Source: Candidatus Zambryskiibacteriota bacterium (GTDB taxonomy: Bacteria > Patescibacteriota > Minisyncoccia > Phycocordibacterales > WO2-35-19). From it: a DNA stretch of 64,000 nt. Positions 1,868 through 57,816 of this stretch are shown here, one piece after another. A program made the translations under genes and the position numbers. The stretch spans positions 4,441 through 68,440 of the forward strand of contig QILQ01000012.1 of the NCBI GenBank assembly GCA_003233455.1, given 5' to 3'. Each line of letters begins with the position of its first letter. Positions within the stretch are counted from its first letter, which is position 1. The notes beneath the pieces were generated by a model, which was not told where the DNA came from, made no database searches, and worked only from the letters and a program-made list of their open reading frames with translations.

Positions 1868-2645
<778 letters not shown>

Positions 2646-2670
2646 TTTAGTTAAAGTTATCAATACAGAC

Positions 2671-2722
2671 ATTATATCATGGTCTTGTGTTTTGACACAA
2701 TGATAATTTACAACACAAGTGT
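2671..2722 (-). promoter_or_regulatory. Promoter (-10 TATAAT) with two palindromic operator-like boxes (C-box-like) upstream of the C gene
   Basis: Minus-strand TATAAT at 2676..2671; palindromes TTGTGTtttgACACAA (2685-2700) overlapping the -35 position and ACACaaGTGT (2713-2722). Confidence 0.35.
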
Positions 2723-2739
2723 AAAAATATGATAGCGAA

Positions 2740-2986
2740 CCCGAACGACAAAACCATTTCCTTACCTTTCTTTTCTTTCGGTGGAGGGGTCTGGGGAGGA
2801 GCCGAACAAAAAATTGAAAGGAAATGGTTTTGGTCGGGTGGTCGCCCGAGGTACGAGGGCGACGGTGCGGTGGAGTTGAGAGAGTTACCACTAAACTCTG
2901 CCTGCGGAGAGAGTGGTCAGAATTATTTCAGGCTCTCGCCGTGGGGCGTGCGCCCGCAGGTGCACGCATTAAACAGCACGCACTTC
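2740..2986. ncRNA. GC-rich, hairpin-dense ~250 bp element of unknown identity (candidate structured RNA or cluster of palindromic repeat elements)
   Basis: Strong local GC excess in an AT-rich genome; nested perfect stems e.g. CGACAAAACCATTTCC/GGAAATGGTTTTGGTCG, GTCGCCC/GGGCGAC, CCTGCGG/CCGCAGG, GCGTGC/GCACGC; six-frame ORFs here are Arg/Pro/Gly-rich junk. Confidence 0.3.
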
Positions 2987-3060
2987 TGGTGCGGGATGGG
3001 GTAATCGAAACCCCGACTCAAGTTTGGAAAACTCGCATTTTACCACTAAACTAATCCCGC
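2987..3060 (-). tRNA. tRNA-Gly (anticodon UCC), CCA encoded
   Basis: GCGGGAT-TA-GTTT-AGTGGTA-AAAT-G-CGAGT-TTTCCAA-ACTTG-AGTC-GGGGT-TTCGATT-ACCCC-ATCCCGC-A-CCA cloverleaf. Confidence 0.85.
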
Positions 3061-5554: not shown

Positions 5555-6508
5555 CTAAAAAGGATTTCTGGCGCCACGGATTTCAAAGTGAACATGAGGA
5601 CCGGTAGACTTACCAGTGGTGCCAATAAAAGCGATAACTTGTCCTTGTTTTACAGTTTCTCCTACCGAAACTTTATTTCTACTATTATGAGCATATAAAG
5701 TTTGGGTGCCATTTTTATGTCTAAGAACTACATAATTACCATAACCACCATTCCAACCACCAAATTTGCTAATTATCACTTTTCCATCAGCAGAAGCCAG
5801 TATCGGAGCACCAACTGAAGTGGCAAGGTCAACAGCATTATGTCCGTGGATACCTTGAGTTTTTCTGCCACCAACAATCGGTCTTAAATAATAACCTTTA
5901 TATTCTTTAATACCAGAAGAACCGGATGGACTTAAATAACTGGCATAAGATGGGGTGGATATTTCTCCGTCTGGAATTATGATAACAGAACCGACTTTTA
6001 GAGAATCTCCTTTCTTTAAATCGTTGTAAACTATTATTTCATTCATATCTCCTTTATATTTTTTGGCTATAGAAGAAAGAGTATCCTTTTTGACAACAAC
6101 ATGTTTAACTCCAGAAATAGGCAAGATCACCAAAGTTTCTCCAACTTTTAGAATATTAGAAGGAAGGTTATTACCCCATTTTATGGTATTTACCGTCACA
6201 TTAAACATTTCAGCTATTTGAGAAAGAGTATCTCCCGAACGAACCACGTAAGTGCTTATCTGGTCGCTAACAATCTTTGGTATCTCCGAAACAGAACCGG
6301 CGGGACCAATATTGGACACCAAAGCATTGTCTTTAACTTCCGGAATATAAGAAATATTATTACCGAGCGGAGCAACTACCGCTACCAAAAGAGCCATATT
6401 TTGAATATTTTTATTAGGAACTAGATTTTTGCTATCCGAACCTCTCCAAAGAATATTAAATAGACCAGCAGATACCGAGATTGGCAATAGTAAAATAACT
6501 AACACCAA
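5555..6508 (-). CDS. LysM-domain M23 family metallopeptidase
   Basis: Two LysM repeats (YVVRSGDTLSQIAEMFNV; HVVKKDTLSSIAKKY) and M23 motifs HNAVDLA...GPHVHFEIR. Confidence 0.8.
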   Translation of the reverse strand: MVLVILLLPISVSAGLFNILWRGSDSKNLVPNKNIQNMALLVAVVAPLGNNISYIPEVKDNALVSNIGPAGSVSEIPKIVSDQISTYVVRSGDTLSQIAEMFNVTVNTIKWGNNLPSNILKVGETLVILPISGVKHVVVKKDTLSSIAKKYKGDMNEIIVYNDLKKGDSLKVGSVIIIPDGEISTPSYASYLSPSGSSGIKEYKGYYLRPIVGGRKTQGIHGHNAVDLATSVGAPILASADGKVIISKFGGWNGGYGNYVVLRHKNGTQTLYAHNSRNKVSVGETVKQGQVIAFIGTTGKSTGPHVHFEIRGARNPF

Positions 6509-9074: not shown

Positions 9075-9756
9075 CGGATAAATAGTTAAAATTATAATTT
9101 TTTTCAAATTATGGGTTAAAAAGGAATTACAAAAATTGTTTTAATTTGGGTCGTAACAATAATGGCCCTTGTTGATTTTATTAGTTTTGTTATTTATCGC
9201 ACAATGGCCAGTTTCAGCTTTGGCGAATTGATATTTTCTATATCCCATATAGTGACAGTCTCTTTGATATATTCAACTTTAGTTGGACTAATTGGTTCTT
9301 TTTTTATTGGTTGGTTAGGCGAAAATCTGAATATAGAAAAAATTTAAAAAAGATATTTCTTATTACCTTTTTAATTTCTATTTTAATATTTCTAATATGG
9401 TATACAATTAGTAGTCTTTCATTAATTCAAAAACATTTTTGAAATTCTCTGATAAGATAGTAATATGAAAAAAGATTTTGGAAACTGGCACAATAAAAAA
9501 GATAAATTAGAAAATATAGAAAAAAGACCGTTTTTTAAAGAAAGAGAAATTTGGTTTTGTTATCTTGGTTTAAATATTGGAGACGAAGAAGATGGAAAAA
9601 GATTGGGTTATAAAATTGGCGAGATAAGTAAAAATGATTTTTCTGAATTAAAAAGAAAACTCAAGAAATTACTTCCTTGAGATTCTTTTTACCTCTGTCT
9701 TGCGACAGAGTCGGACCGAAGCCATTTGTGAATATAGTGTAGCAAAATCAAAAAAA

Positions 9757-12700
9757 ATGTCAAGTGATTTTTTAGAATTAAATAAAGCTCAAAGAGAAGC
9801 AGTGGAAACAACCGAAGGTCCTCTGCTTGTTTTGGCGGGAGCGGGAGCTGGTAAAACCAAAACTGTCACCTACAGAATTTTAAATTTAATCCAAAAAGGA
9901 GTTGCTCCAGAAAATATTTTGGCCGTAACTTTTACTAATAAAGCGGCTAGAGAAATGGAAGAAAGAATTTCAAATCTTTTAAAGAAAACTTTAAAACTAA
10001 ACAGACCAATTTCAATAGTTGGCAAACCATTTGTGGCCACTTTTCACGGACTCGGAGCTTTTATTATTAAAGAAAATTTTAGGGAAGCTAAAATTAAAAA
10101 ACATTTTAGTATTTATAATAGAGAAGATTCTAAAAAAGCCATTAGAGAAGCTTTGCGAAAAAATAATTATGATACCAAACAATTTGAACCAGGGAAAATA
10201 CTTTCTATTATTTCTCGCGAGAAAAGCAATTTTGTGGTAATAGATGAATATTTGGAAACAACGGAAGGAAACTATTTCAGAGATATGGTCGCCAAAGTTT
10301 GGCAAGATTATGAGATAATTTTAAAAAAAGAAAACGCTTTAGATTTTGATGACTTGCTTTTGGTAGCCGCCAAACTTTTACAAAAAAAGGAAATTAGAAA
10401 AGTTTACGAAAATAGATGGAAATATATTCATATTGACGAATATCAAGATACCAACAAAGTGCAATACCAAATTGTGGAAGCAATCGGCAGAGGACATCAA
10501 AATGTATGCGCGGTGGGAGATACGGATCAATGTCTTATAAAAGGATCGGAAATAAAAATGGCAGACGGTAGTTTGAAAAAAATTGAGAATATAAAAAAAA
10601 ATCAGTATGTATTATCAAATTATGGAAGCGGTGATTTACGTCCTGCAAAAATCACGCGAAAAATAAAAAGCTTTTTTAAGGGTGATCTTATTAGAATCAA
10701 AACAAAAAAAGGAAAAATTATAACGAGCACACCAAATCATACTCATTTTGCCGGATATCAGTTAGAAATCACTCCTCAATTATATTTCAACTACCTTATG
10801 TACAAAAAAGGAATCGGGTGGAGGATAGGTACAACTCAGGTTCATACAAAAGGACAAATAAAACCTGTTATAGGATTTGTACAAAGATCAAATCAAGAAC
10901 ACGCTGATGCTTCGTGGATTATAGCAGTTCACCAAACATCCAACGAGTCCAGAATCCAAGAATATATTTTTTCGCTTAAATACCAAATTCCAACACTTCC
11001 TTTTGTTCCAAGAAAAGGACTCAGTACTGGAGGATATGTTCATGACAAAAATTACCTTAAAAAAATATTTTCCTCTTTCAATACAGAAAAATCCGCCCTT
11101 AAATTACTTTCTGATTTGGGGCTACAATATAATTACCCTCACCATTACCCTCAATCGTCTAATTCTAGTAGAATAAATATAAATGTAACCCTGTGTGGAG
11201 ATAGACGGGGACAAAATCCATTTCATAGAATTTCTGTTCATGGAAATAATAAAATGGAAAAGAAAATACTTGAAACTGCTGGATTTTCTGTTCGCCAAGC
11301 AAAATTAAACACTAAAAATTGGAGATGTGAAAAAGGTTCTTCTAATTACGGAGAAATTTGTATGTTGGCCACGAAGATAGCTTCACTTTTTGATAACTCA
11401 AAAATAATCTTCAGAGCCAGACTTGGTGGTACAAAATCTAACCCAAAGAACAGCAATTCTTTACCGTGTATACCAGCAGGTTCTGTAATGCTAGGTATGG
11501 CTTTATTTTCTATTGACGGCTATGATATTGTATCAAAAATTTCACGAATATCAGTAACCAAAAAAGAAGTTTTTGACATTGATGTTGAAAAAACTCACAA
11601 CTTTATTACAAATGATATAGTAACCCACAATTGTATTTATAGTTGGCGAGGAGCTAACATAAAAAATATTTTGAATTTTGAAAAAGATTACAAAAATGCG
11701 AAAATAGTGGTCTTGGAACAAAATTATCGTTCTACTAAAACTATTCTGGCAGTGGCCAATAAAATTATTGAAAAAAATAAATTCAGAAAAGAAAGAACTT
11801 TAACGACAGAAAATTCAGTGGGTGAAAAAATTGGAATTTTTGAAGCTCTAACCGAAAATCATGAAGCTCAATTTATAGTGGAAAAAGTTAAAGAATTACA
11901 AAAAAAAGGAGTAAATCTTTCTGATATGGCGGTTTTATACAGAGCGAATTTTCAATCACGCGTTTTGGAAGAAGAATTTTTAGCTAAAGATGTGCCTTAC
12001 CAAGTGTTGGGAACTAAATTTTTTGACAGAAAAGAAATTAAAGATATTTTGGCATTTTTAAGGTTTTGTTTTAATCCGGAAAGTATTTCTGATTTAAAAA
12101 GAATAATAAATGTGCCTCCCAGAGGTATAGGTAAAATTACTCTTTTAAAAATTGTGGAAGGGAAAGAAAAAAATTTGCCAGTCAAAATGAAAATAAAAAT
12201 GAAAATTTTTAGAGATCTTTTGAGAAAAGTTAAAGATTTCGCCAGTCAAAATCCATTATCTAAAACTATTTTATTTATAGCGAGAGAAGTCGGTTTAAAT
12301 GAAAATCTTAAAAAAACAGAAGAAGGGGCAGAGAAGATAGAAAATATAAAAGAGCTGGTAACCTTGGCTTCGCATTATGATAAAATATTTAAAGAAGATA
12401 ATGAAGGAGTAAAAAACTGGGATGAAGCGGTGGAAAAATTATTAGAAGATACTTCTTTGGCGTCAGATCAAGACAGTGACAAAAAAGAAAAAAAGGGAGT
12501 TCGTTTAATGACAGTGCATGCCAGTAAAGGTCTTGAATTTACTTATATTTTCATTACCGGCTTGGAAGAGGGACTTTTTCCGCATAGTAGAAGTCAAGAT
12601 GAAAATTTGAGCGAAGAAGAAGCCGAGGAAGAACGCCGACTTTTTTATGTGGCTATTACTCGCGCTAAGAAAAAACTTTTTCTTTCTTACGCTCAAACTC

Positions 12701-12849
12701 GCACCATTTTTGGTAGCAGAGGAATTAATATTCCCTCTGAATTTATACTGGAAATTCCAGATAAATATTTGGAGAGAGAATCTTTGGATTCTCTCCCTAC
12801 GGGAGACAGGTACTCAAAAAGAAAACCACTTATTCATATTGAGTTTTAG
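9757..12849 (+). CDS. uvrD: UvrD/PcrA-family ATP-dependent DNA helicase, intein-containing
   Basis: Walker A AGAGAGKT, motif III GDTDQ/CIYSWRGAN split by intein, C-terminal VHASKGLEF...YVAITRAKKKL. Confidence 0.85.
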   Translation: MSSDFLELNKAQREAVETTEGPLLVLAGAGAGKTKTVTYRILNLIQKGVAPENILAVTFTNKAAREMEERISNLLKKTLKLNRPISIVGKPFVATFHGLGAFIIKENFREAKIKKHFSIYNREDSKKAIREALRKNNYDTKQFEPGKILSIISREKSNFVVIDEYLETTEGNYFRDMVAKVWQDYEIILKKENALDFDDLLLVAAKLLQKKEIRKVYENRWKYIHIDEYQDTNKVQYQIVEAIGRGHQNVCAVGDTDQCLIKGSEIKMADGSLKKIENIKKNQYVLSNYGSGDLRPAKITRKIKSFFKGDLIRIKTKKGKIITSTPNHTHFAGYQLEITPQLYFNYLMYKKGIGWRIGTTQVHTKGQIKPVIGFVQRSNQEHADASWIIAVHQTSNESRIQEYIFSLKYQIPTLPFVPRKGLSTGGYVHDKNYLKKIFSSFNTEKSALKLLSDLGLQYNYPHHYPQSSNSSRININVTLCGDRRGQNPFHRISVHGNNKMEKKILETAGFSVRQAKLNTKNWRCEKGSSNYGEICMLATKIASLFDNSKIIFRARLGGTKSNPKNSNSLPCIPAGSVMLGMALFSIDGYDIVSKISRISVTKKEVFDIDVEKTHNFITNDIVTHNCIYSWRGANIKNILNFEKDYKNAKIVVLEQNYRSTKTILAVANKIIEKNKFRKERTLTTENSVGEKIGIFEALTENHEAQFIVEKVKELQKKGVNLSDMAVLYRANFQSRVLEEEFLAKDVPYQVLGTKFFDRKEIKDILAFLRFCFNPESISDLKRIINVPPRGIGKITLLKIVEGKEKNLPVKMKIKMKIFRDLLRKVKDFASQNPLSKTILFIAREVGLNENLKKTEEGAEKIENIKELVTLASHYDKIFKEDNEGVKNWDEAVEKLLEDTSLASDQDSDKKEKKGVRLMTVHASKGLEFTYIFITGLEEGLFPHSRSQDENLSEEEAEEERRLFYVAITRAKKKLFLSYAQTRTIFGSRGINIPSEFILEIPDKYLERESLDSLPTGDRYSKRKPLIHIEF
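10531..11631 (+). other. Intein (367 aa) inserted in helicase motif III of UvrD/PcrA
   Basis: Block A CLIKGSEI after GDTDQ; block B TPNHTHF; blocks F/G VFDIDVEKTHNFITNDIVTHN followed by +1 Cys (CIYSWRGAN). Confidence 0.75.
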
Positions 12850-12887: not shown

Positions 12888-13136
12888 ATGACTACCCAAA
12901 TAATGTTCAAAATTGAAAATAAGCTCAAGAAAGCAGCTCAAGAAAGAGCCAAAGAAGAGGGAATTACTCTAAGTGATTTTTATAAATCTGCCACCAAATC
13001 ATTTGTGGAAGGTAAAATAACAGTAGGAATAATTTTTGAAGAAGAGAGTTTAAACGATTACACAAAAGAAAGTTTATTGTCTTTAAAAAAAGGATTAGCT
13101 GATTGTAAAAAAGGCAAAGTTTTTAGAACAAGATGA
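12888..13136 (+). CDS. RelB/DinJ-family antitoxin
   Basis: IMFKIENKLKKAAQERAKEEGITLSDFYKSATKSFVEG; overlaps toxin gene by ATGA. Confidence 0.55.
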   Translation: MTTQIMFKIENKLKKAAQERAKEEGITLSDFYKSATKSFVEGKITVGIIFEEESLNDYTKESLLSLKKGLADCKKGKVFRTR

Positions 13137-13390
13137 AAATATTTTGGACGAATGAATTTAATAAAAATTTAAAACTTCTCCCAACTAAAACAAGAAGGCT
13201 CTACAAAAAACAGGAAAATATCTTTTTTGTAAACTGGAAAGATCCTCGCCTCCACACAAAAAAACTAAAAGGAGTTAATCAGATTTTTTCTTTTAGAATT
13301 ACAAGAAAATATAGAGTTTTATTTAAAATTACAGATAAATCCTCAATTTTGTTTGTTTCAATAGGTCACAGAAAAAATATTTATGACTAA
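13133..13390 (+). CDS. RelE/ParE(YafQ)-family toxin
   Basis: 85 aa, ...FSFRITRKYRVLFKITDKSSILFVSIGHRKNIY. Confidence 0.6.
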   Translation: MKIFWTNEFNKNLKLLPTKTRRLYKKQENIFFVNWKDPRLHTKKLKGVNQIFSFRITRKYRVLFKITDKSSILFVSIGHRKNIYD

Positions 13391-14324
13391 ATTTCAACCA
13401 AAAAAATCATTGGGGCAACATTTTTTGAGAGATTCAAAAATACTCAAGAGAATTGTTGATTTTGCCGAGATTAAAAAAACAGATATTATGGTAGAAGTGG
13501 GACCTGGAGAAGGAGGACTTACTAAATTACTTCTTGAACAAGCGAAAAAAGTGATAGCGGTTGAAAAAGATGAAGAGATGGTAATTTTTTTGAAAGGCAA
13601 ATTTAAAAAAGAAATCAAAGAAGGAAAATTAGAAATTGTTGAAGGAGATATTTTAGATTTTTATTCGCAAAATATTTTCTCGCCACTTGCGGACTCAAAC
13701 TATTTTGCCACCAACTATAAATTAGTTGGCAATATCCCATATTACATAACTGGAGCTTTGTTTAAAAAAGCTTTAGAAGCTTCAAATTTTCCAAAATCAA
13801 TAACTTTTGTAGTCCAAAAAGAGGTAGCACAAAGAATTATGGCTCAAAGATGCCTGCCTGCCGGTGGGCAGGGAAAAGAAAGTATTTTGAGTATTTCCAT
13901 AAAAGTTTATGGCAAGCCGAAATATGGGGGAGTTATAAAAGCGGGCAGTTTTTATCCAAAACCAAAAGTTGATTCGGCTATTTTATCAGTAAGAGGTATT
14001 TCAAAAGAAAAATTTCAAAGGACTGACCTTAAAAAAAATCCCAAAGGTCAGTCCTTGGGAAAAGAAAATTTTTCTTTTGGGGAAATACTTGAGCAGAATT
14101 TCTTTAAAATATTAAAAATAGGATTTTCTCATAAAAGAAAGTTGCTTATTAAAAATTTGGAGAACCTGTCAAGGGTCGCCTTTTTGGGGCAACTTTCAAA
14201 GGCGACCCTTGACACTTCAAATCTAAAAGAAATTTTTGAAAAATGTGGAATTTCAGATAAAGCCAGAGCAGAAGATTTAAAAGTTGAAGATTGGATTTGC
14301 TTGAGCAAAAAGTTTTCACCATAA
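13383..14324 (+). CDS. rsmA: 16S rRNA (adenine1518/1519-N6) dimethyltransferase RsmA/KsgA, with in-frame palindromic insertions
   Basis: LGQHFLRDSKILKRIV...VEVGPGEGGLT...FYPKPKVDSAIL...FSHKRKLLIKNL; longer than usual owing to inserted segments. Confidence 0.85.
   Translation: MTKFQPKKSLGQHFLRDSKILKRIVDFAEIKKTDIMVEVGPGEGGLTKLLLEQAKKVIAVEKDEEMVIFLKGKFKKEIKEGKLEIVEGDILDFYSQNIFSPLADSNYFATNYKLVGNIPYYITGALFKKALEASNFPKSITFVVQKEVAQRIMAQRCLPAGGQGKESILSISIKVYGKPKYGGVIKAGSFYPKPKVDSAILSVRGISKEKFQRTDLKKNPKGQSLGKENFSFGEILEQNFFKILKIGFSHKRKLLIKNLENLSRVAFLGQLSKATLDTSNLKEIFEKCGISDKARAEDLKVEDWICLSKKFSP
14018..14056. repeat. Perfect 13-bp inverted repeat (AAGGACTGACCTT/AAGGTCAGTCCTT) inside rsmA coding sequence
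   Basis: Direct reading; encodes RTDLKKNPKGQSLG within the ORF. Confidence 0.7.
14167..14214. repeat. Perfect 17-bp inverted repeat (TGTCAAGGGTCGCCTTT/AAAGGCGACCCTTGACA) inside rsmA coding sequence
   Basis: Direct reading; encodes SRVAFLGQLSKATLDTS inserted between conserved KRKLLIKNLENL and NLKEIFEKCGI. Confidence 0.75.
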
Positions 14325-33290: not shown

Positions 33291-34634
33291 ATGGACACCA
33301 AGGAATTATGGAATAATATCCTGTTGGAAATAGAGACCTCTGTCTCTAAAGCTAATTTTACAACATGGTTTAAGGAAACTAAAATATCCGGATTTGATAA
33401 AGGAACAATATATTTAAGTGTACCAAACACTTTTGTCCAAGAATGGTTATTGAAAAAATTTCACAGTCTTATATTAAAACTTTTAAGACAATCTTCCGAG
33501 TCAATTCATGCTCTTGAATATGTGATAAAAGAAGAAAGTAAACAAAAAAATCAATATGTGCCGACTAAAACCATACTAGCAACAAGAGAATTACCCTTGT
33601 CTGAACACTATATCAATAAAGATAATAATTTAAATCCAAGATACACTTTCGAATCTTTTGTGGTTGGACCATTTAATGAGTTAGCGAACGCCGCCGCTCA
33701 AGGTGTATTAAAAAATTTAGGAGTAGCTTATAATCCACTTTTTATATATGGTAATACTGGACATGGTAAAACTCATTTAATTCAAGCGGTTGGTAATGCT
33801 GTAAAAGCGATAGATTCATCAAAAAAAATATTTTATTTTACTTCTGAAAAATTTGTTAATGATTATATAAGTTCGGTTCAAGCAAATAAAGTGGATAAAT
33901 TTAAAGAAAAATATAGAAAATATGATATGTTGATAATGGATGATGTTCAATTTCTTTCAGGAAAAGAGAGAACCCAAGAAGAGTTATTTCATCTTTTTAA
34001 TATAATGAAAGACAATAATAAACAAATAGTTTTTTCTTGCGACAAACATCCAAATTTTGTAAATGGTTTAGAGGATAGATTAAAATCTAGGTTTGCTTCT
34101 GGTATGATTGTTGATATACCAGCACCTGACCATGAATCAAGAGTGGCAATTATCAGATCTAAATGTGCCAGTATAAATCTTTTTATAGATAATGAAATTA
34201 TTGATTATTTAGCTGATTCAATAAAGGGTAATATAAGAGATTTAGAAGGTGTAATAAATTTAATAGTTTGTCAAACAGAAACTAAAAATAAAACTTTAAA
34301 TTTAAATGAAGTGAAAGATTTAGTTAAAAATAGTATTAAACAAAAAAAATTATTATCTTATAAAGAAGTTATTAAAATAATAACTGATTTTTATAAAATA
34401 GAGGAAGAGATGATATATAAAAAAACCAGAAAAAAAGAAGTTATAAAACCAAGACAAATAATAATGTATATATTAAGAGAAGATTTTAGTATATCCTATC
34501 CATCAATAGGTGAGAAATTAGGTGGTAGAGATCATACCACAGTAATACATTCATGTGAAAAAATTAAAAAAGAGGTTAAAATTGATATGCTTTTATTAAA
34601 AGAAATACAAGAAATAAGGTCAATTATAGGTTAA
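33291..34634 (+). CDS. dnaA: Chromosomal replication initiator DnaA
   Basis: Walker A GNTGHGKTHL, ...LMDDVQFLSGKERTQEELFHLFN, C-terminal DNA-binding domain. Confidence 0.95.
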   Translation: MDTKELWNNILLEIETSVSKANFTTWFKETKISGFDKGTIYLSVPNTFVQEWLLKKFHSLILKLLRQSSESIHALEYVIKEESKQKNQYVPTKTILATRELPLSEHYINKDNNLNPRYTFESFVVGPFNELANAAAQGVLKNLGVAYNPLFIYGNTGHGKTHLIQAVGNAVKAIDSSKKIFYFTSEKFVNDYISSVQANKVDKFKEKYRKYDMLIMDDVQFLSGKERTQEELFHLFNIMKDNNKQIVFSCDKHPNFVNGLEDRLKSRFASGMIVDIPAPDHESRVAIIRSKCASINLFIDNEIIDYLADSIKGNIRDLEGVINLIVCQTETKNKTLNLNEVKDLVKNSIKQKKLLSYKEVIKIITDFYKIEEEMIYKKTRKKEVIKPRQIIMYILREDFSISYPSIGEKLGGRDHTTVIHSCEKIKKEVKIDMLLLKEIQEIRSIIG

Positions 34635-34812
34635 TTAATTGTTAATAATGTGTTTAAAAACTGTGTTAATTATGTTATTAAAAAAATTAAAAAAGAAGTT
34701 ATAATTTAATTATAAACATTAAATAAAAATTAAAAAAGAAATAGGAGTTTAAAAATAAAGTTTAAAAAAGAAATCCACTAATCCACAAGTATATATAAGT
34801 AATTAAAATAAT
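34635..34812. promoter_or_regulatory. dnaA-dnaN intergenic AT-rich region with DnaA-box-like repeats (second oriC candidate)
   Basis: AAATCCACTAATCCACAAG contains two near-consensus TTATCCACA-like boxes. Confidence 0.35.
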
Positions 34813-35916
34813 ATGAAATTTGAATGTAATAAATTAAAAATAGAAAAAGCTTGTCAAAAAATACTAAAATTAACTGATAAACATTTAACTTTACCGGTGC
34901 TTACTTGTGTTTATTTAGATATTTTAAGTAATAATAAACTTATTATAAAAGCGACGAATTTAGATGTTGGGGTAGAAATTGAAATAAAAATTAAAACAAT
35001 AGAAAAAGGTATTATAACTGTTCCAGCTAATATTTTGTTGGGAGTATTATCTTCTATTAAAGAAAATAATACTTTAATTTTTGAATCTAAAGAGAATAAT
35101 TTTAAAATATTATCCAATAAAAATTCAGTGATTATTAAATGTTTACCCTATGAAGATTTTCCAAGTATTCCAAAATTAGAAAACATAAAACCAATAAAAA
35201 TAAATTGCCATAATTTAATATCTGGGTTTAAATCTGTTTGGTATAGTGCTTCAAGTTCAAATATAAAACCAGAGCTTTCAAGTGTTTATATATATAAAAA
35301 AGATGATAAATTAGTTTTTGTTTCTACTGATTCCTTTCGTTTGGCTGAAAAAAAAATCAATACTAAAATACCAATTAATTTTCCTCAAACTATTATTCCA
35401 TATAAAAATGTTTCAGAAATAATAAAATTATTTGAAGATTATAATGGTGATATTGATGTTGTTTTTGAAAAAAACCAAGCCGCTTTTATTACAGAAGATA
35501 TTTATTTAGTATCAAGATTAATAGATGGAACTTTTCCAGATTACAAACAAATAATACCAAAAACATTTAATACTACTGTTACGGTTTTAAAAACTGATTT
35601 AATAAATTCTATTAAAACATCAAATATTTTTTCAGATTCTTTAAATCAAATTAAATTAAAAGTGAATGTTAAAAATAAATCTCTAGATATAGAATCAAAA
35701 AATAATAATATAGGAGAGTATAAAGAATCAATTACCGCTTCTGTTTTTGGTGATGATTTGGAATTAAATTTTAATAATAAATATATATTAGATTGTATGC
35801 AATCTATCCCTTCTGATAGTTTAATTTTAAGTTTTGATGGGGTTGGTAAACCACTTGCTATAAATGGAGCAACAGATAAAAGTTTCCTTTATATTGTAAT
35901 GCCTATGAATAGATAA
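34813..35916 (+). CDS. dnaN: DNA polymerase III beta sliding clamp
   Basis: 367 aa directly after dnaA. Confidence 0.85.
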   Translation: MKFECNKLKIEKACQKILKLTDKHLTLPVLTCVYLDILSNNKLIIKATNLDVGVEIEIKIKTIEKGIITVPANILLGVLSSIKENNTLIFESKENNFKILSNKNSVIIKCLPYEDFPSIPKLENIKPIKINCHNLISGFKSVWYSASSSNIKPELSSVYIYKKDDKLVFVSTDSFRLAEKKINTKIPINFPQTIIPYKNVSEIIKLFEDYNGDIDVVFEKNQAAFITEDIYLVSRLIDGTFPDYKQIIPKTFNTTVTVLKTDLINSIKTSNIFSDSLNQIKLKVNVKNKSLDIESKNNNIGEYKESITASVFGDDLELNFNNKYILDCMQSIPSDSLILSFDGVGKPLAINGATDKSFLYIVMPMNR

Positions 35917-35999
35917 TCTCACTTTAAAATACCTCACCTTAGTCCCTCTCCTATAAATACAGGAAAAGGGAGAAAGAAAGGAAAAATAATTTTAAAAAA

Positions 36000-36248
36000 A
36001 TGAATAGTATTACTAATTTTTTACAGAAATTTTTAAAATTTGAGAAAGATAATAATATAAAATTAGCTATTATTTTAGATTGTATAAAACAAGCTACAAA
36101 TATAGAGCTAACCAGGGAGATGTTGGAAATAAGAGGGGATAATTTAAAACTAAACTGTAATCCAGTATTCCGAAACGAAATTTTTATGCATAAATCTAAA
36201 ATAGAGGAGTTATTAAAGGTTCAAAAGATATTTTTAAATATTGTTTAA
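36000..36248 (+). CDS. Hypothetical protein
   Basis: 82 aa ORF. Confidence 0.25.
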   Translation: MNSITNFLQKFLKFEKDNNIKLAIILDCIKQATNIELTREMLEIRGDNLKLNCNPVFRNEIFMHKSKIEELLKVQKIFLNIV

Positions 36249-42353: not shown

Positions 42354-42467
42354 CCTCCCTAACTCTCCTTACTTTAAGGAGGGAACCGCGCAATAAACTC
42401 TGTTAAACAACTGAATAATAAATATGAGTCACCCTCTCCTTAAGGTAAGGAGAGGGCTGGGGAGAGG
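42354..42467. repeat. Two copies of GC-rich palindromic hairpin element (CTCTCCTTAcTTTAAGGAGGG and CCCTCTCCTTAaggTAAGGAGAGGG) in yebC-ruvB intergenic region
   Basis: Direct reading; same family as 23673, 46365, 47863. Confidence 0.6.
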
Positions 42468-46364: not shown

Positions 46365-46415
46365 CCTCACCCCTCACTCCGTGTAGCCCTCTCCTTAATA
46401 AGGAGAGAGGGGAGA
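46365..46415. repeat. GC-rich palindromic repeat element (CCTCACCCCTCACTCC + CCCTCTCCTTAataAGGAGAGAGGGG)
   Basis: Inverted orientation relative to 23673 copy; intergenic. Confidence 0.6.
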
Positions 46416-46488
46416 AACCAAAGGGAACCCTTAAAGAATTAAAGAAATGCCCCAAAAGGTCCCCCTTGGTTTTGTGTAGTATGAAAGC

Positions 46489-47630: not shown

Positions 47631-48125
47631 ATGAAAGAATTTTTATCTAAAAATGTAGAAGAAACAGCCAAAATTGCTACTGATTTTGGAAAGCAATTAA
47701 ATAGAATAAACAGAAAGGCACCTTCCGCAAAAGCTACTGTTGTGGGGTTGTATGGAGAATTGGGAAGTGGTAAGACTGCTTTTATGAAATATTTAGCGAA
47801 TTTTTTTGGTATTAAAGAAACTATCCAAAGTCCAACTTATGTAATTATGAAAACTTATAAAACCTCACCCCCCAGCCCCCTCTCCTTAACAAGGAGAGGG
47901 GGAGAAGAAAACTCCCGTTCTCTTGGGAGTGAGGTGTTCCAACATTTAATTCATATTGACGCTTATCGGATAGAAAAAGAAGATGAGATGATAAATTTAG
48001 GTTGGCAAGAAATTATATCTGACCCTAAAAATTTAATTTGTATAGAATGGCCGGAAAATATCTCAGGTATAATGCCTGAGCATACTATGATAAAATTTAA
48101 ACAAAAAATGACGAAAGAAAAATAG
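47631..48125 (+). CDS. tsaE: tRNA threonylcarbamoyladenosine biosynthesis ATPase TsaE with in-frame repeat-element insertion
   Basis: VGLYGELGSGKTAFMKYL...IQSPTYVIMKTY...IHIDAYRI...LICIEWPE; 22-aa insert SPPSPLSLTRRGGEENSRSLGS encoded by repeat. Confidence 0.7.
   Translation: MKEFLSKNVEETAKIATDFGKQLNRINRKAPSAKATVVGLYGELGSGKTAFMKYLANFFGIKETIQSPTYVIMKTYKTSPPSPLSLTRRGGEENSRSLGSEVFQHLIHIDAYRIEKEDEMINLGWQEIISDPKNLICIEWPENISGIMPEHTMIKFKQKMTKEK
47863..47936. repeat. GC-rich composite palindromic repeat element inserted in frame in tsaE
   Basis: CCTCACCCC...CCCCCTCTCCTTaacaAGGAGAGGGGG...ACTCCCgttctcttGGGAGTGAGGTG. Confidence 0.7.
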
Positions 48126-53935: not shown

Positions 53936-54853
53936 ATCAACAATCAGACCTTTTTCATCGTGGAGGTCTATTTTATCATGTCTTGTTCGCCAAAGCGGTC
54001 CAAATTTATTTAAATAAATACGATATTCATTACCCGGAAAATCGGTATCACCAAGATGTTTGGCTATACAAGTATTATAATTTATTTGGGTAGTGATATA
54101 GGTTTTGCAAGCTGAGGAAACAGTATCAGGTAAGTCCCTTATAAATTCATTATCTCTGGTAACGCATCGCGGTATTCTTTCTATAATATTCAAACATTCA
54201 TCATTCCTATCATAAACGTTGGAAAATCTTGGTAAATTTTCGTCTTTTGACAGAGGACATTGTAAAGACAAACTTGGATAAAATGTCCTATTTTCTTCAA
54301 AATAACCGGTACATTTATTTGTTCGGAAAGATATACCTATAGGAGAAAAACCTTTAATTAAATAAACCCTATCTCCTTGTTGAAGGACTACATTACTTTC
54401 TGTTTTGGCAAAAGGAAATGGCAATAAAGCTGCTTGACCGATGATAGTATAATATCCGGTAACTTCACTCTTTAAATACCAGTCGGTTATTTTTAGAGTC
54501 TCATTTTTTTTGAGATTGGTAGAAAGAGAAAGATATTCTTCATTAGGATTATCTTGATAAAGTCCGGATATGTTTGACATTCTAATTTTATCGTAATAAG
54601 GAGAACGTTTGCTTCGTTTTATTTTTTTATCTAAACTTTGTTCTAATTTTTTGATGTCTTTTTTTGCTTCTTTTATATTTGCCGCTACTTCTTTATTTGA
54701 TGAATAACCTAAATTTTTATTGTTTGTTCCGATTGAAGAAATATTTTTGGAGATGTTGTTCCTATTTGTCTTGGCTTTTTTGAGCGGACTGTAAGCAAGT
54801 CCTACAAGAATAAACAAAACTAATATTATAATCAATGGTTCCTTAATATTCAT
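53921..54853 (-). CDS. Hypothetical secreted protein
   Basis: Signal/anchor MNIKEPLIIILVLFILVGLAYS. Confidence 0.35.
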   Translation of the reverse strand: MNIKEPLIIILVLFILVGLAYSPLKKAKTNRNNISKNISSIGTNNKNLGYSSNKEVAANIKEAKKDIKKLEQSLDKKIKRSKRSPYYDKIRMSNISGLYQDNPNEEYLSLSTNLKKNETLKITDWYLKSEVTGYYTIIGQAALLPFPFAKTESNVVLQQGDRVYLIKGFSPIGISFRTNKCTGYFEENRTFYPSLSLQCPLSKDENLPRFSNVYDRNDECLNIIERIPRCVTRDNEFIRDLPDTVSSACKTYITTQINYNTCIAKHLGDTDFPGNEYRIYLNKFGPLWRTRHDKIDLHDEKGLIVDSISY

Positions 54854-55769
54854 ATTTTATCTGGTGTTTGGAGCAAAAGTGAGCGCTTCTGCCCCTAATT
54901 ACTATTCTTTCTATTATACCCGAACAATTCCTTTTTGAACATTTTTGTCCTTTTTTACCGTAAACTTTATGAAAATTCTGAAAACCGCCTTTTTCACCAA
55001 AAACATTTCTATAATCCGATTTGGAATCGCCTCCATATTTAATTGAGAGTTTTAAAATTTTTTGCATTGCTTTAAAAATTTCCGCAAATTTCTCTTTCGG
55101 AATTTTATCGGCGAATGATAAGGGGTGAATGTCGGTTTGCCAAAGAATTTCGTCTGAATAAATGTTGCCAATACCGGCAATGGCTTTTTGGTCAAGTAAG
55201 GCGGATTTTATAGGGGTTCTCTTTTTCTTGCACATTATCTCAAAAAGTTTCTTGGCATTGAATTTCGGGTCAAGAGGGTCCGACCCGAGTTTTGATAAAG
55301 TTTTGTGTTGATGAAGTTTGGTTGTTTCAAAAATAGTAACAGAAGCAAATTTTCTCATATCAGAAAGCACTAAATGTTTATTATTTGATAAAGAAAAAAC
55401 TAGATGTATAAATTGATTGTATGAATCTTGAAGAGGTCCTTTTTTGTAATCACCAACCATTAAGTGTCCTGTCATTTTCATATGGATTATAATGGTGTAT
55501 AAAATCAAGGTTAAACCTTGGAGATTTTCAAGGTTTAACCTTGATTTTATGTGAATTAAAATATTTTTTCCTTTTTTTTCAATAGAAATAATTTTTGCTC
55601 CTACTACAATTTGTTTGAAATAATCAAAATACTTTTTATTTTTTATAGTCTGACTATTTCCGCAAGCGGTATTAACATAAAAATCAGACCAGACATCTTT
55701 AATAGTTTGTCCGATAATAGTCTTTTTTAATCCTTCAACTGTTGTATATACTTCTGGTAGTTCGGGCAT
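54843..55769 (-). CDS. mutM: Formamidopyrimidine-DNA glycosylase (Fpg/Nei family) with in-frame palindromic insertion
   Basis: MPELPEV N-terminus, C-terminal zinc finger C..C...C..C; insert KSRLNLENLQGLTLILYTII before HMKMTGHL. Confidence 0.75.
   Translation of the reverse strand: MPELPEVYTTVEGLKKTIIGQTIKDVWSDFYVNTACGNSQTIKNKKYFDYFKQIVVGAKIISIEKKGKNILIHIKSRLNLENLQGLTLILYTIIIHMKMTGHLMVGDYKKGPLQDSYNQFIHLVFSLSNNKHLVLSDMRKFASVTIFETTKLHQHKTLSKLGSDPLDPKFNAKKLFEIMCKKKRTPIKSALLDQKAIAGIGNIYSDEILWQTDIHPLSFADKIPKEKFAEIFKAMQKILKLSIKYGGDSKSDYRNVFGEKGGFQNFHKVYGKKGQKCSKRNCSGIIERIVIRGRSAHFCSKHQIKYEY
55498..55550. repeat. AT-rich perfect inverted repeat (23-bp arms) inserted in frame in mutM
   Basis: TATAAAATCAAGGTTAAACCTTG-gagatttt-CAAGGTTTAACCTTGATTTTAT. 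Confidence 0.75.
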
Positions 55770-56397: not shown

Positions 56398-57816
56398 TTA
56401 TTTAAAAATTTTCTTTAATTCTTCACGAACTACTGTGGCGTCATCCCATTCTTGTTTAGTTCCATTTGGACCCATAATATAAGGGTCGGTACCTTTGCCG
56501 GTAATTAAAACAACCACTTTTTTATTTGAACCTTCTTTATTTGTAAAATCTACAGCTTTTTTGATGGCGGTATTTATAGCTCTTCTTCTGTCCATAATTA
56601 TTTCAACTGGTTTATTTTTTATTCCTTCTTTTATCTCTTCTACAATCTTTTTAGGGTCTTCGTTATAAGGGTCCTCATTTGTTAAAATTATTTGGTCGCA
56701 ATATTTGTCAGCTATTTCTCCCATCACTTTTCTTTTCCAAGTATCTCTACCTCCGCCGGTATTTCCAAGAATACAAATAAGATGATACTTATTTTTCTCT
56801 TTTTTTGAAAGGGGATTATAAGTTTCGTAAACGGCTTTTAATGAATCTGGGGTGTGAGCATAATCAACTACTATATCAATTTGCTTGTTGGCAGGAAGGA
56901 ATTTTGATGTGTCTATTTTCTCCATTCTGCCTCTAATAAATTTTATATTCTCTAATCCTTCTTTTATTTTTTCTAGAGAAATACCTGCAAATCTAGCATA
57001 AGCGATAGCTCCAAGCATATTGGAAACATTAAAAATTCCTGGTAATTTGCTGTGAATGACAATTTTGCCAATTTGAAAAGAGGAACCTTTTTCATCAGCT
57101 TTTATAGCAATAGCATCATTAAGAGAATAAGGAACTTTATTTTTTATATTAAGCTCCAAAAATTTTTCTCCCTCTTTGTCATCGGTATTCGCTATGATCA
57201 CAGGGCCAGAAAAAGATGTCTCTGAGAAAAGTCTGGTTGAGTCCTGTAAGTGCGACCCTAGGACTTTTTGAAGAGATTTCTTTTTCTGGCCTATTAATTC
57301 CTTGGCAATAGTGAGTTTAGCTTTCAAATAATTTTCATAAGAGCCGTGTGACTCAATATGTTCCGGTGCCAAATTGGTGAAAATAAGAGCGTCTAAAAAT
57401 AAAAACTTATGTCTAAATTGAGGCACCCCTTCGGAACTTATTTCAACAATAGCGTAGCTACAGCCCGCACCAACCGCTTGTCTTAAAAATTTTTGGGTAA
57501 AAAATCTACCTCGCAAAGTCATTTTAAACATATTTCTCCATTCTTTTTCTCCAATTTTATATCTTAAAGTGCTAGCTAAAGCTGTTTTATAACCAGCTGT
57601 TTTTAAAATAGTGTTTACCAATTCTACGGTGGTAGTTTTACCTTTAGTGCCGGTAATACCAATGACGATTAATTTTTTAGCGGGGAAGCGATAAATAATC
57701 GCTCCAGTAATTGCTAAAATATAATGATAAATTGGTTGAGTGCTTCTAAATAAACTTTTTGGTATTATTTTTCTGCCAATATTCAATATTTTTTCTAGAA
57801 ATTTTGATTCTTTCAT
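56398..57816 (-). CDS. murE: Mur ligase, MurE-type (UDP-MurNAc-tripeptide synthetase) with in-frame repeat insertion
   Basis: GITGTKGKTTT, DYAHTPDSL; insert ...QKVLGSHLQDSTRL... identical to polA insert. Confidence 0.7.
   Translation of the reverse strand: MKESKFLEKILNIGRKIIPKSLFRSTQPIYHYILAITGAIIYRFPAKKLIVIGITGTKGKTTTVELVNTILKTAGYKTALASTLRYKIGEKEWRNMFKMTLRGRFFTQKFLRQAVGAGCSYAIVEISSEGVPQFRHKFLFLDALIFTNLAPEHIESHGSYENYLKAKLTIAKELIGQKKKSLQKVLGSHLQDSTRLFSETSFSGPVIIANTDDKEGEKFLELNIKNKVPYSLNDAIAIKADEKGSSFQIGKIVIHSKLPGIFNVSNMLGAIAYARFAGISLEKIKEGLENIKFIRGRMEKIDTSKFLPANKQIDIVVDYAHTPDSLKAVYETYNPLSKKEKNKYHLICILGNTGGGRDTWKRKVMGEIADKYCDQIILTNEDPYNEDPKKIVEEIKEGIKNKPVEIIMDRRRAINTAIKKAVDFTNKEGSNKKVVVLITGKGTDPYIMGPNGTKQEWDDATVVREELKKIFK
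57206..57289. repeat. 84-bp palindromic repeat element in frame in murE (outer 11-bp inverted repeat CCAGAAAAAGA/TCTTTTTCTGG, core shared with polA copy)
   Basis: Direct reading. Confidence 0.7.

Follow-up and report, generated by a model that had tools for sequence, protein, structure and literature searches.

In the genome of a Candidatus Zambryskiibacteriota bacterium, the gene that we identify as rsmA (ksgA) harbors two perfect palindromes within its reading frame, both of which appear to be small mobile elements that the protein has accommodated. The window, as we call the whole stretch of DNA analyzed, is 64 kb of contig QILQ01000012.1 (assembly GCA_003233455.1) with a GC content of ~32%; palindrome 1 lies at 14018–14056 and palindrome 2 at 14167–14214, both on the plus strand. 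The two are insertions; they are palindromic at the level of the DNA, they belong to dispersed families, and the pairing of their arms has been kept by compensatory changes. The 13-mer of which palindrome 1 is built is, in addition, physically tied in related genomes to Y1 genes that resemble RAYTs (REP-associated tyrosine transposases). The explanation we favor, at a probability of roughly three in four, is that they are non-autonomous doublets of the REP (repetitive extragenic palindrome) type, members of dispersed Paceibacterota families, which sit in frame in permissive loops of RsmA and would be mobilized by an RAYT-like enzyme.

The host gene (13383–14324, plus strand) encodes 313 amino acids (aa), ~67 aa more than its shortest close orthologs. 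Its product scores 203.4 bits against TIGR00755, the RsmA/KsgA equivalog model (cutoff 171), its best sequence match in the PDB is KsgA (E = 4e-32), and its AlphaFold model superimposes on KsgA structures with Foldseek TM (target) scores of 0.74–0.85. Judged by sequence and predicted structure, then, the open reading frame (ORF) is that of the RsmA/KsgA 16S rRNA dimethyltransferase, and a first-pass annotation of the same DNA had placed the two palindromes correctly: both are in frame, and they specify the peptides QRTDLKKNPKGQSL (aa 212–225) and LSRVAFLGQLSKATLDT (aa 262–278), within insert stretches that read RTDLKKNPKGQSLG and SRVAFLGQLSKATLDTS.

Palindrome 1 occupies 39 nucleotides (nt), or 13 codons. 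Its arms, AAGGACTGACCTT (14018–14030) and AAGGTCAGTCCTT (14044–14056), are 13 bp long and 100% complementary, and they enclose a 13-nt loop, AAAAAAAATCCCA. Each arm is itself a unit of the form AAGG-N5-CCTT—the 13-mer AAGG(T/A)CNGACCTT—so the element is a head-to-head doublet. Palindrome 2 is similarly organized but longer, at 48 nt or 16 codons: its arms, TGTCAAGGGTCGCCTTT (14167–14183) and AAAGGCGACCCTTGACA (14198–14214), form 17 bp, again 100% complementary, around the 14-nt loop TTGGGGCAACTTTC, and contain the AAGG-N4-CCTT units AAGGGTCGCCTT and AAGGCGACCCTT. Direct inspection of the sequence and a repeat finder agree on both. They had been described as ‘GC-rich’, which is apt by comparison with the ~32% of the window but overstates the matter for the arms themselves, at 46% (palindrome 1) and 53% (palindrome 2) GC. 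That such hairpins are not expected by chance, as was also proposed, is borne out by simulation. The window contains four perfect stems of ≥13 bp, against 0.075 expected from 40 first-order Markov simulations, and the two among these with a GC content of ≥0.4 are both in rsmA, against an expectation of 0. The predicted folds have energies of –32.2 kcal/mol (z = –4.3) for palindrome 1 and –33.8 kcal/mol (z = –6.0) for palindrome 2, and for each, 0 of 200 dinucleotide shuffles was as good.

The palindromes map to insertions, an earlier conjecture that two comparisons support. When the window protein is aligned by HMMER with KsgA of Bacillus subtilis, the latter is gapped opposite residues ~208–235 and 262–277. 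And among 36 close orthologs, 246–360 aa in length, nearly all length variation is confined to five hot spots. One is the N-terminus. Site A separates GDIL from YKLVGNIPYY, site D precedes KESILS, site B, which holds palindrome 1, precedes FFEILK, and site C, which holds palindrome 2, follows KRKLLIKNL. Compared with the shortest of these orthologs, the window protein is longer by 13 residues at site A, by 7 at site D, by 26 at site B and by 19 at site C, and several orthologs have nothing at all at sites B and C. The wider set of the best 120 RsmA homologs spans the same range of lengths, 246–360 aa, at 50–63% identity over the local BLASTP alignment; its named members are Zambryskibacteria, Paceibacterota and Parcubacteria. 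In the AlphaFold model, confidence (predicted local distance difference test, pLDDT) exceeds 90 over much of the core and falls below 50 at residues 100–107, 215–229 and 270–272, which in the model are the inserted segments.

Three further features of the gene had escaped the first reading. Palindrome 1 is enclosed in a composite hairpin of 78 nt (14002–14079, plus strand), the outer part of which is a perfect 14-bp, AT-rich inverted repeat (14002–14015/14066–14079). The right part of the composite contains a mini-palindrome, AAAAGAAA-att-TTTCTTTT (14060–14078; stem 8, loop 3), which adds ~8 residues, KENFSFGE, that the sister ortholog L085 lacks (handles of this kind denote our related sequences). 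Site A retains what looks like a remnant at 13667–13708 (plus strand), a weak hairpin with an 8-bp inverted repeat, GCAAAATA/TATTTTGC, and a 26-nt spacer (z = –4.3). Site D has a small hairpin, CCTGCC-ggtg-GGCAGG (13857–13872, plus strand), within the 7-residue insertion RCLPAGG; taken alone it is not significant (z = –1.9).

Orthologous sites in relatives proved to be rich in palindromic DNA when rsmA from 16 related genomes was scanned for perfect hairpins. At site B, L081–L084 and L086 carry AAGGTCTGACCTT and AAGGTCAGACCTT, separated by a loop of 13 or 16 nt. The window arms differ from these by one compensated change, T>A on one side and A>T on the other, and are the compensated A/T variant of the family consensus; the sister L085 has the window's change and two more compensated pairs. 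Across the site-B alignment, 97.7% of cells are paired; the core has 13 pairs, of which 3 are changed in both members, and 0 core cells are unpaired. Had the symmetry been a matter of codon choice, orthologs might be expected to share the residues without the palindrome; in those with the same peptides, the DNA there is perfectly palindromic instead.

Site C hints at growth. Several orthologs have a minimal hairpin of 21 nt there, TGTCAAGGN-nnn-NCCTTGACA, of which palindrome 2 is an expanded form; L085 has a long form, too, and in L084 the element is a nested composite with another hairpin at its apex. The hairpins thus appear to grow apically, one within the other, from the minimal 21 nt to forms of 48–75 nt. 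Site A, which is little more than a remnant in the window, holds perfect palindromes of 18–24 bp in relatives: L001 and L086 have one with a 24-bp stem and TGTCAAAGG ends, the element of L082 is the same as that of L084 at site C, and L003, L005 and L007 have yet another family. In L085 the insert at site A, between the same flanks, is 27 aa longer. On a rough neighbor-joining tree, the site-B element has a patchy distribution: it is found in L083 but not in L003, in L084 but not in L005 or L007, and in L086, with a replacement in L001. The loop of palindrome 2, moreover, matches the reverse complement of the L085 loop at 17 of 20 positions, compared with 6 of 20 in the same orientation. Patchy presence and an inverted loop speak for turnover rather than for a static structure, and palindromic repeat DNA encodes many of the hypervariable RsmA insertions of this clade.

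A 10-mer, TTGGGGCAAC, is shared by the conserved 5' end of the window rsmA (13410–13419), where it encodes LGQH, and the loop of palindrome 2 (14184–14193). We considered whether the loop motif TGGGGCAA might be copied from, or pair with, the 5' end of the gene, but the orthologs have no such link, and the sharing is probably due to chance.

The families extend well beyond rsmA. A scan of Joint Genome Institute (JGI) metagenome contigs with the exact pattern AAGGWCTGACCTT-N10-20-AAGGTCAGWCCTT found the palindrome-1 doublet, our family 1, on at least 120 contigs. Among the 124 copies in the matches listed, to which the counts that follow also refer, 96 are inside ORFs of ≥60 aa, on both strands and in several frames. 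Hosts that we sampled include a VirD4-like ATPase, ArgRS (twice), PriA, IleRS, TopA, GatB, SMC, UvrC and an LCAT-like protein. Depending on frame and orientation, the element is read as LRSDLK..KGQTL, KGLTL..KGQTL, QGLTL..QGQTL, RSDL..RSDL or KVRP; the same DNA read in such different ways in different places argues that conservation acts at the level of DNA, and is not a coincidence of codons. The units begin AAGG. The variable arm pair is T/A in 107 copies, the compensated A/T in 6, A/A in 4 and T/T in 0. No target-site duplication is evident. Four contigs have two copies each; in the window the exact arms of each palindrome occur once, alongside relatives at the family level. On a set of contigs of ~37% GC, palindromic units of different kinds, the doublet among them, are combined in mosaic clusters. 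An alternative idea, that the loop is a conserved ‘cargo’ and the stems are free to vary, was discarded, since the scan shows that the arms define the family and the loops vary.

Palindrome 2 belongs to a second family, TGTCAARGG...CCYTTGACA, with members at two rsmA sites (A and C), within an ORF of 527 aa (L173) and in the spacer upstream of an AAA_14 gene (L081). When the peptide of this family was searched against a protein database, set out as an artificial tandem of 40 aa, nothing matched. Viral contigs of IMG/VR gave 0 matches to the patterns of both families, and hence no sign of a phage vector. The first-pass annotation had suggested a search for the same palindromes elsewhere. Within the remainder of the 64 kb their exact arms are absent; it is at the level of families, and in other genomes, that dispersal is seen.

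A transposase that might move such elements can be pointed to as well. All DNA fetched in the analysis was scanned for HUH and Y…NP signatures, and three ORFs (L090, L095 and L161) have them. Each codes for a protein of ~225 aa that passes Pfam Y1_Tnp (31–37 bits; gathering score 23) and has the REP-associated tyrosine transposase as its best NCBIfam match. Within the L161 ORF lies the AAGGTCTGACCTT doublet, and 10 nt beyond the stop codon there is a unit. Hairpins of the form GCGAAGG(C/T)CAGACCTTCGC flank the orthologs of this gene in L210 (78% identity) and L211 (68%), where a unit lies 5–7 nt after the stop. At the Y1_Tnp genes of L161, L210 and L211 we find AAGG(C/T)C(A/T)GACCTT units upstream, 5–10 nt after the stop and inside the ORF, and the hairpin unit of this RAYT-like clade can be written AAGGTCNGACCTT. 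Since these are the units that flank those genes, the arm of palindrome 1 is the unit cognate to the L161/L210/L211 clade. Beside the RAYT-like genes, single units form hairpins. The other two genes have hairpins of their own: ACCTGCAAGG-tcttg/caaga-CCTTGCAGGT on both sides of the L090 gene, and six CATAGGC-ctc-GCCTATG hairpins flanking the L095 gene, with one more inside the ORF.

The RAYT-like gene is apparently present in a single copy: its clusters are found on few contigs, and it is syntenic in the three contigs examined. In L207, L210 and L211 (~10001/4001) it stands between a giant protein with a PG_binding domain and a protein with a PKD domain; in L210 and L211, the S19-L22-S3 ribosomal operon follows this neighborhood, and RecA and FtsK precede it. 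Conserved synteny of the two L161 orthologs, in L210 and L211, beside the ribosomal protein operon suggests vertical inheritance as a single-copy gene, and it looks like one that has been domesticated. The family is large, with 7832 homologs at E ≤ 1e-10; those with names are almost all from relatives of Paceibacterota/Parcubacteria, and one is called RayT by JGI. The L207 gene, probably from the same organism as L082, was tried as a link to the L082 rsmA elements and rejected, as it is flanked by a different hairpin family. Cognate hairpins also occur in frame inside the RAYT-like genes themselves: in L161 at 3012–3056, in L210 at 10166–10216 and in L095 at 6341–6369, with those of L161 and L210 at the same position.

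Other genes of the window contain in-frame palindromes, too. The longest perfect palindrome of all is in fpg/mutM (55499–55550, minus strand), in frame in ORF 54843–55769: it has a 22-bp stem and a loop of 8 (z = –9.0), it falls in the N-terminal domain of Fpg/MutM, and it specifies the peptide IKSRLNLENLQGLTLILY. Its core, AAGGTTAAACCTT/AAGGTTTAACCTT (55507–55542), is built, like the rsmA elements, as an AAGG-N5-CCTT doublet. The Pfam Fapy_DNA_glyco match is correspondingly stretched, with residues 1–143 spread over 116 model positions. A decayed intergenic doublet at 46421–46467, AAGGGAACCCTT ... AAGGTCCCCCTT, has GAAATGCCCCA, the loop motif of its family, and is of the same family as the L082 and L084 rsmA elements. 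A further hairpin family, CCCTCTCCTTAA..AAGGAGAGGG, has three copies in the window: two are intergenic (42432–42456 and ~46387–46411), and one is in frame in tsaE (47876–47902, plus strand), where CCCCCTCTCCTT-aac-AAGGAGAGGGGG specifies SPLSLTRRGG (z = –4.7). The Pfam match of TsaE is split into two stretches. GTAG precedes the ~46387 copy. In a Mur ligase gene (ORF 56398–57816), an imperfect palindrome of 88 nt (57204–57291, minus strand; 30-nt arms, 83% complementary; z = –5.5) sits in frame between two stretches of the Pfam middle-domain match.

How might such elements have come to reside in a gene like rsmA? Each doublet, we suggest, would form a single long hairpin wherever the DNA is single-stranded, or in RNA. 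An RAYT-like HUH/Y1 enzyme, encoded elsewhere in the genome and outside the window, would recognize the hairpin in single-stranded DNA during replication, and would mobilize, excise or re-insert the elements in trans; recognition, excision and insertion of this kind are proposed from what is established for IS200/IS605 and RAYT enzymes. In a gene-dense genome of ~1 Mb most landing sites would be coding, and the survivors would be those copies that keep the frame, lack stop codons and fall in tolerant loops, to be translated as short extra peptides. Mobilization in trans would explain the patchy presence of the elements, their flipped loops and their nesting.

A number of observations sit uneasily with this account. 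The flanks of the 104 unique family-1 copies in the matches listed have neither a conserved GTAG or CGTC tag nor a target motif, and the contigs span a GC range of 0.28–0.60, with taxonomy settled for a minority only. Dispersal of palindrome 2 rests on five contexts, and no transposase linked to it was found. When the palindrome arms were sought across the window with up to 2–3 mismatches, only the palindromes themselves came to light. The three RAYT-like proteins score 36–41 bits against the NCBIfam RAYT model, for which the cutoff is 80, and tblastn found a RAYT-like gene neither in the 64-kb window nor at the rsmA loci of its close relatives. There are also the site-B arms, which are identical at 26 of 26 nt in five orthologs whose third-position identity is 0.49–0.67. 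Insertion once, followed by drift, does not predict such identity at nearly saturated synonymous sites, which calls for elements that re-insert, for copies that evolve in concert or for a constraint at the level of the host. Insertion anew into occupied sites, concerted evolution, correction of one arm from the other by template switching, and host function could all contribute, both to arm identity and to apical growth. A bolder extension of the idea, which we regard as doubtful, is that the RAYT-like gene, inherited vertically, and the doublets form a long-term partnership within coding sequence, in which the elements endure, or are put back again and again, at orthologous positions in essential genes under a sequence-specific constraint, grow apically, and serve as a generator of loops or perform some function for the host in DNA or mRNA.

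Host function, in place of selfish DNA, is one rival explanation. On it the hairpins are cis-acting structures in mRNA or DNA, kept at fixed sites by selection on the host for, say, mRNA stability, RNase III processing, translational pausing or autoregulation by KsgA, and besides identical arms at the same site it can claim the compensatory covariation, the strength of the folds, and the fact that wherever a flank pair at site B varies, the variant is a U-G wobble of the sense strand. We think it unlikely nonetheless, because the same sequence is spread over at least 120 contigs, where it lies in genes unrelated to one another, in several frames and on either strand, as well as in mosaic clusters between genes; because close orthologs have it or lack it, with the loop flipped between sister taxa; and because the RAYT-like link points to mobile DNA. 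Nor is there an Rfam family to match: Rfam 15 at its gathering scores found only tRNAs in the window, and at relaxed thresholds rsmA drew only sub-threshold matches to generic hairpins (miRNA precursors). Individual copies may, of course, have been co-opted by the host. Intra-strand template switching during replication could, on the other hand, have produced the palindromes locally, without a mobile family, and would account neatly for perfect arms, for exact arms unique within the window, for nested apical growth from 21 nt to 48–75 nt, and for core changes that are all compensated, as arm-to-arm correction predicts. It would not place identical 13-mers and similar loops at >100 unrelated loci, or one composite element at two rsmA sites in two genomes (site A of L082, site C of L084), or units beside RAYT-like genes. 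A family at many unrelated sites refutes template switching as the sole origin, an origin we deem distinctly improbable, but the process may help to keep the arms perfect.

The possibility that the peptides are what is selected, as a protein module, or that codon usage has produced the symmetry by coincidence, gains something from the recurrence of the peptides at the same RsmA positions in several orthologs. The codons, however, are atypical for a genome of 32–36% GC, synonymous positions in the arms are invariant, and the inserts are predicted to be disordered or of low confidence and are missing from several orthologs altogether. Use of the same DNA in several frames and orientations, with different peptides as a result, refutes this interpretation, and we give it next to no weight. 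An artefact of assembly or amplification, such as a chimeric inverted duplication, is a further rival: the source is a metagenome-type assembly, and multiple displacement amplification chimeras can yield perfect palindromes. Artefacts would scarcely be in frame and free of stops, nor recur at the same sites in genomes assembled independently by different projects and on at least 120 other contigs; the chance that we have been misled in this way is vanishingly small.

If the palindromes are indeed REP-type doublets, they are unorthodox ones. REPs are extragenic by definition, and a head-to-head doublet of REPs that forms a single hairpin is called a REPIN in Pseudomonas; the partner enzyme is the RAYT. 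Resemblances to that system are several: short palindromic stem–loop units, paired head-to-head into one hairpin (AAGGACTGACCTT/AAGGTCAGTCCTT in palindrome 1, AAGGGTCGCCTT/AAGGCGACCCTT in palindrome 2); compensatory changes between the halves; mosaic clusters with other units, as in bacterial interspersed mosaic elements; and an apparently single-copy Y1/IS200-like gene flanked by the cognate unit in related genomes. The differences are no less plain. Most of the elements described here lie inside genes and in frame (of the 124 copies listed, 96 are in ORFs), so that ‘extragenic’ does not describe them; the doublets are much smaller, ~36–48 nt; the units are AAGG...CCTT, with no GTAG or CGTC tag; the RAYT-like proteins are longer and divergent, below the NCBIfam cutoff, and none is encoded in the window; and the lineage is that of the Candidate Phyla Radiation (CPR)/Paceibacterota, with arms conserved at orthologous sites.

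Elements in frame within genes have been described before, so the kind, at least, is already known. Intragenic REPs and REP dimers that encode 20–30 residues in frame include RPE-4 and RPE-6, two Rickettsia palindromic elements (RPEs) of Rickettsia conorii (PMC3733652), and other bacteria have such elements in uvrA/uvrB (Di Nocera et al. 2013, PMC3733652). The same study distinguishes GTAG and CGTC superfamilies, and found no dedicated transposase for the CGTC REPs (PMC3733652). The comparison with RPEs drawn in the first-pass annotation holds for behavior: these, too, are palindromic and selfish, lie in frame in functional housekeeping genes, including those for DNA repair, add ~13–30 residues, are often dimers, and sometimes occur twice per gene, the hosts here being rsmA, uvrD, fpg, tsaE and others. 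The likeness is one of behavior; in build, what the elements resemble are REP-type head-to-head doublets. They belong to another phylum, their AAGG...CCTT units appear distinct from the CGTC-tagged RPE-4 and RPE-6 and from the longer RPE-1, and, in contrast to the CGTC REPs, they can be linked to a candidate transposase.

Two other systems invite comparison. MITEs (miniature transposable elements with inverted repeats) derived from IS200/IS605 (PATE-type) rely on a Y1 HUH transposase that recognizes DNA hairpins. Like them, our elements show no evident target-site duplication; unlike them—their left and right subterminal hairpins are distinct, and their target is a defined tetranucleotide—the whole element here is one symmetric hairpin, and no target motif was detected. 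The mitochondrial genes of Nematomorpha contain perfect inverted repeats that are translated within protein-coding sequence (PMC6649704), and they resemble ours, as the GC-cluster and hairpin elements of organelles do, in that perfect inverted repeats are translated in an AT-rich, compact genome. Those of Nematomorpha are up to 284 bp, and both of their arms encode conserved parts of proteins (PMC6649704), whereas those reported here are short, lie in non-conserved loops and form sequence families across many genes and genomes. In our searches of the literature we came across no account of these elements in CPR bacteria, nor any of the 13-mer.

Proteins of CPR bacteria (Patescibacteria) are noted for odd, lineage-specific insertions. 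In the RsmA examined here, ~67 of 313 residues, about one-fifth of an essential enzyme, are in hypervariable insertions at five hot spots, and the same elements occur in tRNA synthetases, a topoisomerase, SMC, repair proteins and others. This matters for gene calling and homology modeling in CPR, where low-confidence loop inserts inflate apparent divergence. It bears, too, on how selfish DNA persists in very small, gene-dense genomes: intergenic space is scarce, and the elements live in coding loops. For REP/RAYT biology, it adds a family of REP doublets that is mainly intragenic, and whose arm sequence is nevertheless kept over deep divergence. The elements amount to natural maps of where essential proteins tolerate insertion, and if the partnership between RAYT-like genes and doublets is real, it would be a standing source of new surface loops in CPR proteins.

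The surroundings of rsmA have some features of their own. Upstream, at 9700–12849 (plus strand), is a helicase of the UvrD/PcrA type, 1049 aa long and split by an intein (Pfam Intein_splicing, residues 286–644); its orthologs on related contigs are ~657–660 aa and lack the intein. Between the two lies a two-gene cassette, directly upstream of rsmA (12888–13390, plus strand), that comprises an 82-aa ORF with no Pfam match and an 85-aa ParE-like toxin, the ORF of which overlaps the start of rsmA by 8 nt; the same pair is found in L081 and L082. Downstream of rsmA, relatives have genes suggestive of type IV secretion or conjugation (L082, 16419–20891; L086, 9702–10776), among them PrgI, a TraC-like protein, a TraG P-loop protein and a type IV secretion system pilin. 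A hairpin in L082 (19297–19336) overlaps the 3' end of the TraG-like gene.

Farther away, an imperfect inverted repeat with 25-nt arms (2749–2832) lies near tRNA-Gly (2987–3060), in the N-terminal extension of an HTH_3 ORF (2433–2891, minus strand). The extension is implausible; the true start is probably later, which would make the repeat intergenic. The GC content of the window reaches its minimum, 22% compared with ~32% overall, at 34001–36000, over ORFs 33291–34634 and 34813–35916, and this may be foreign or fast-evolving DNA.

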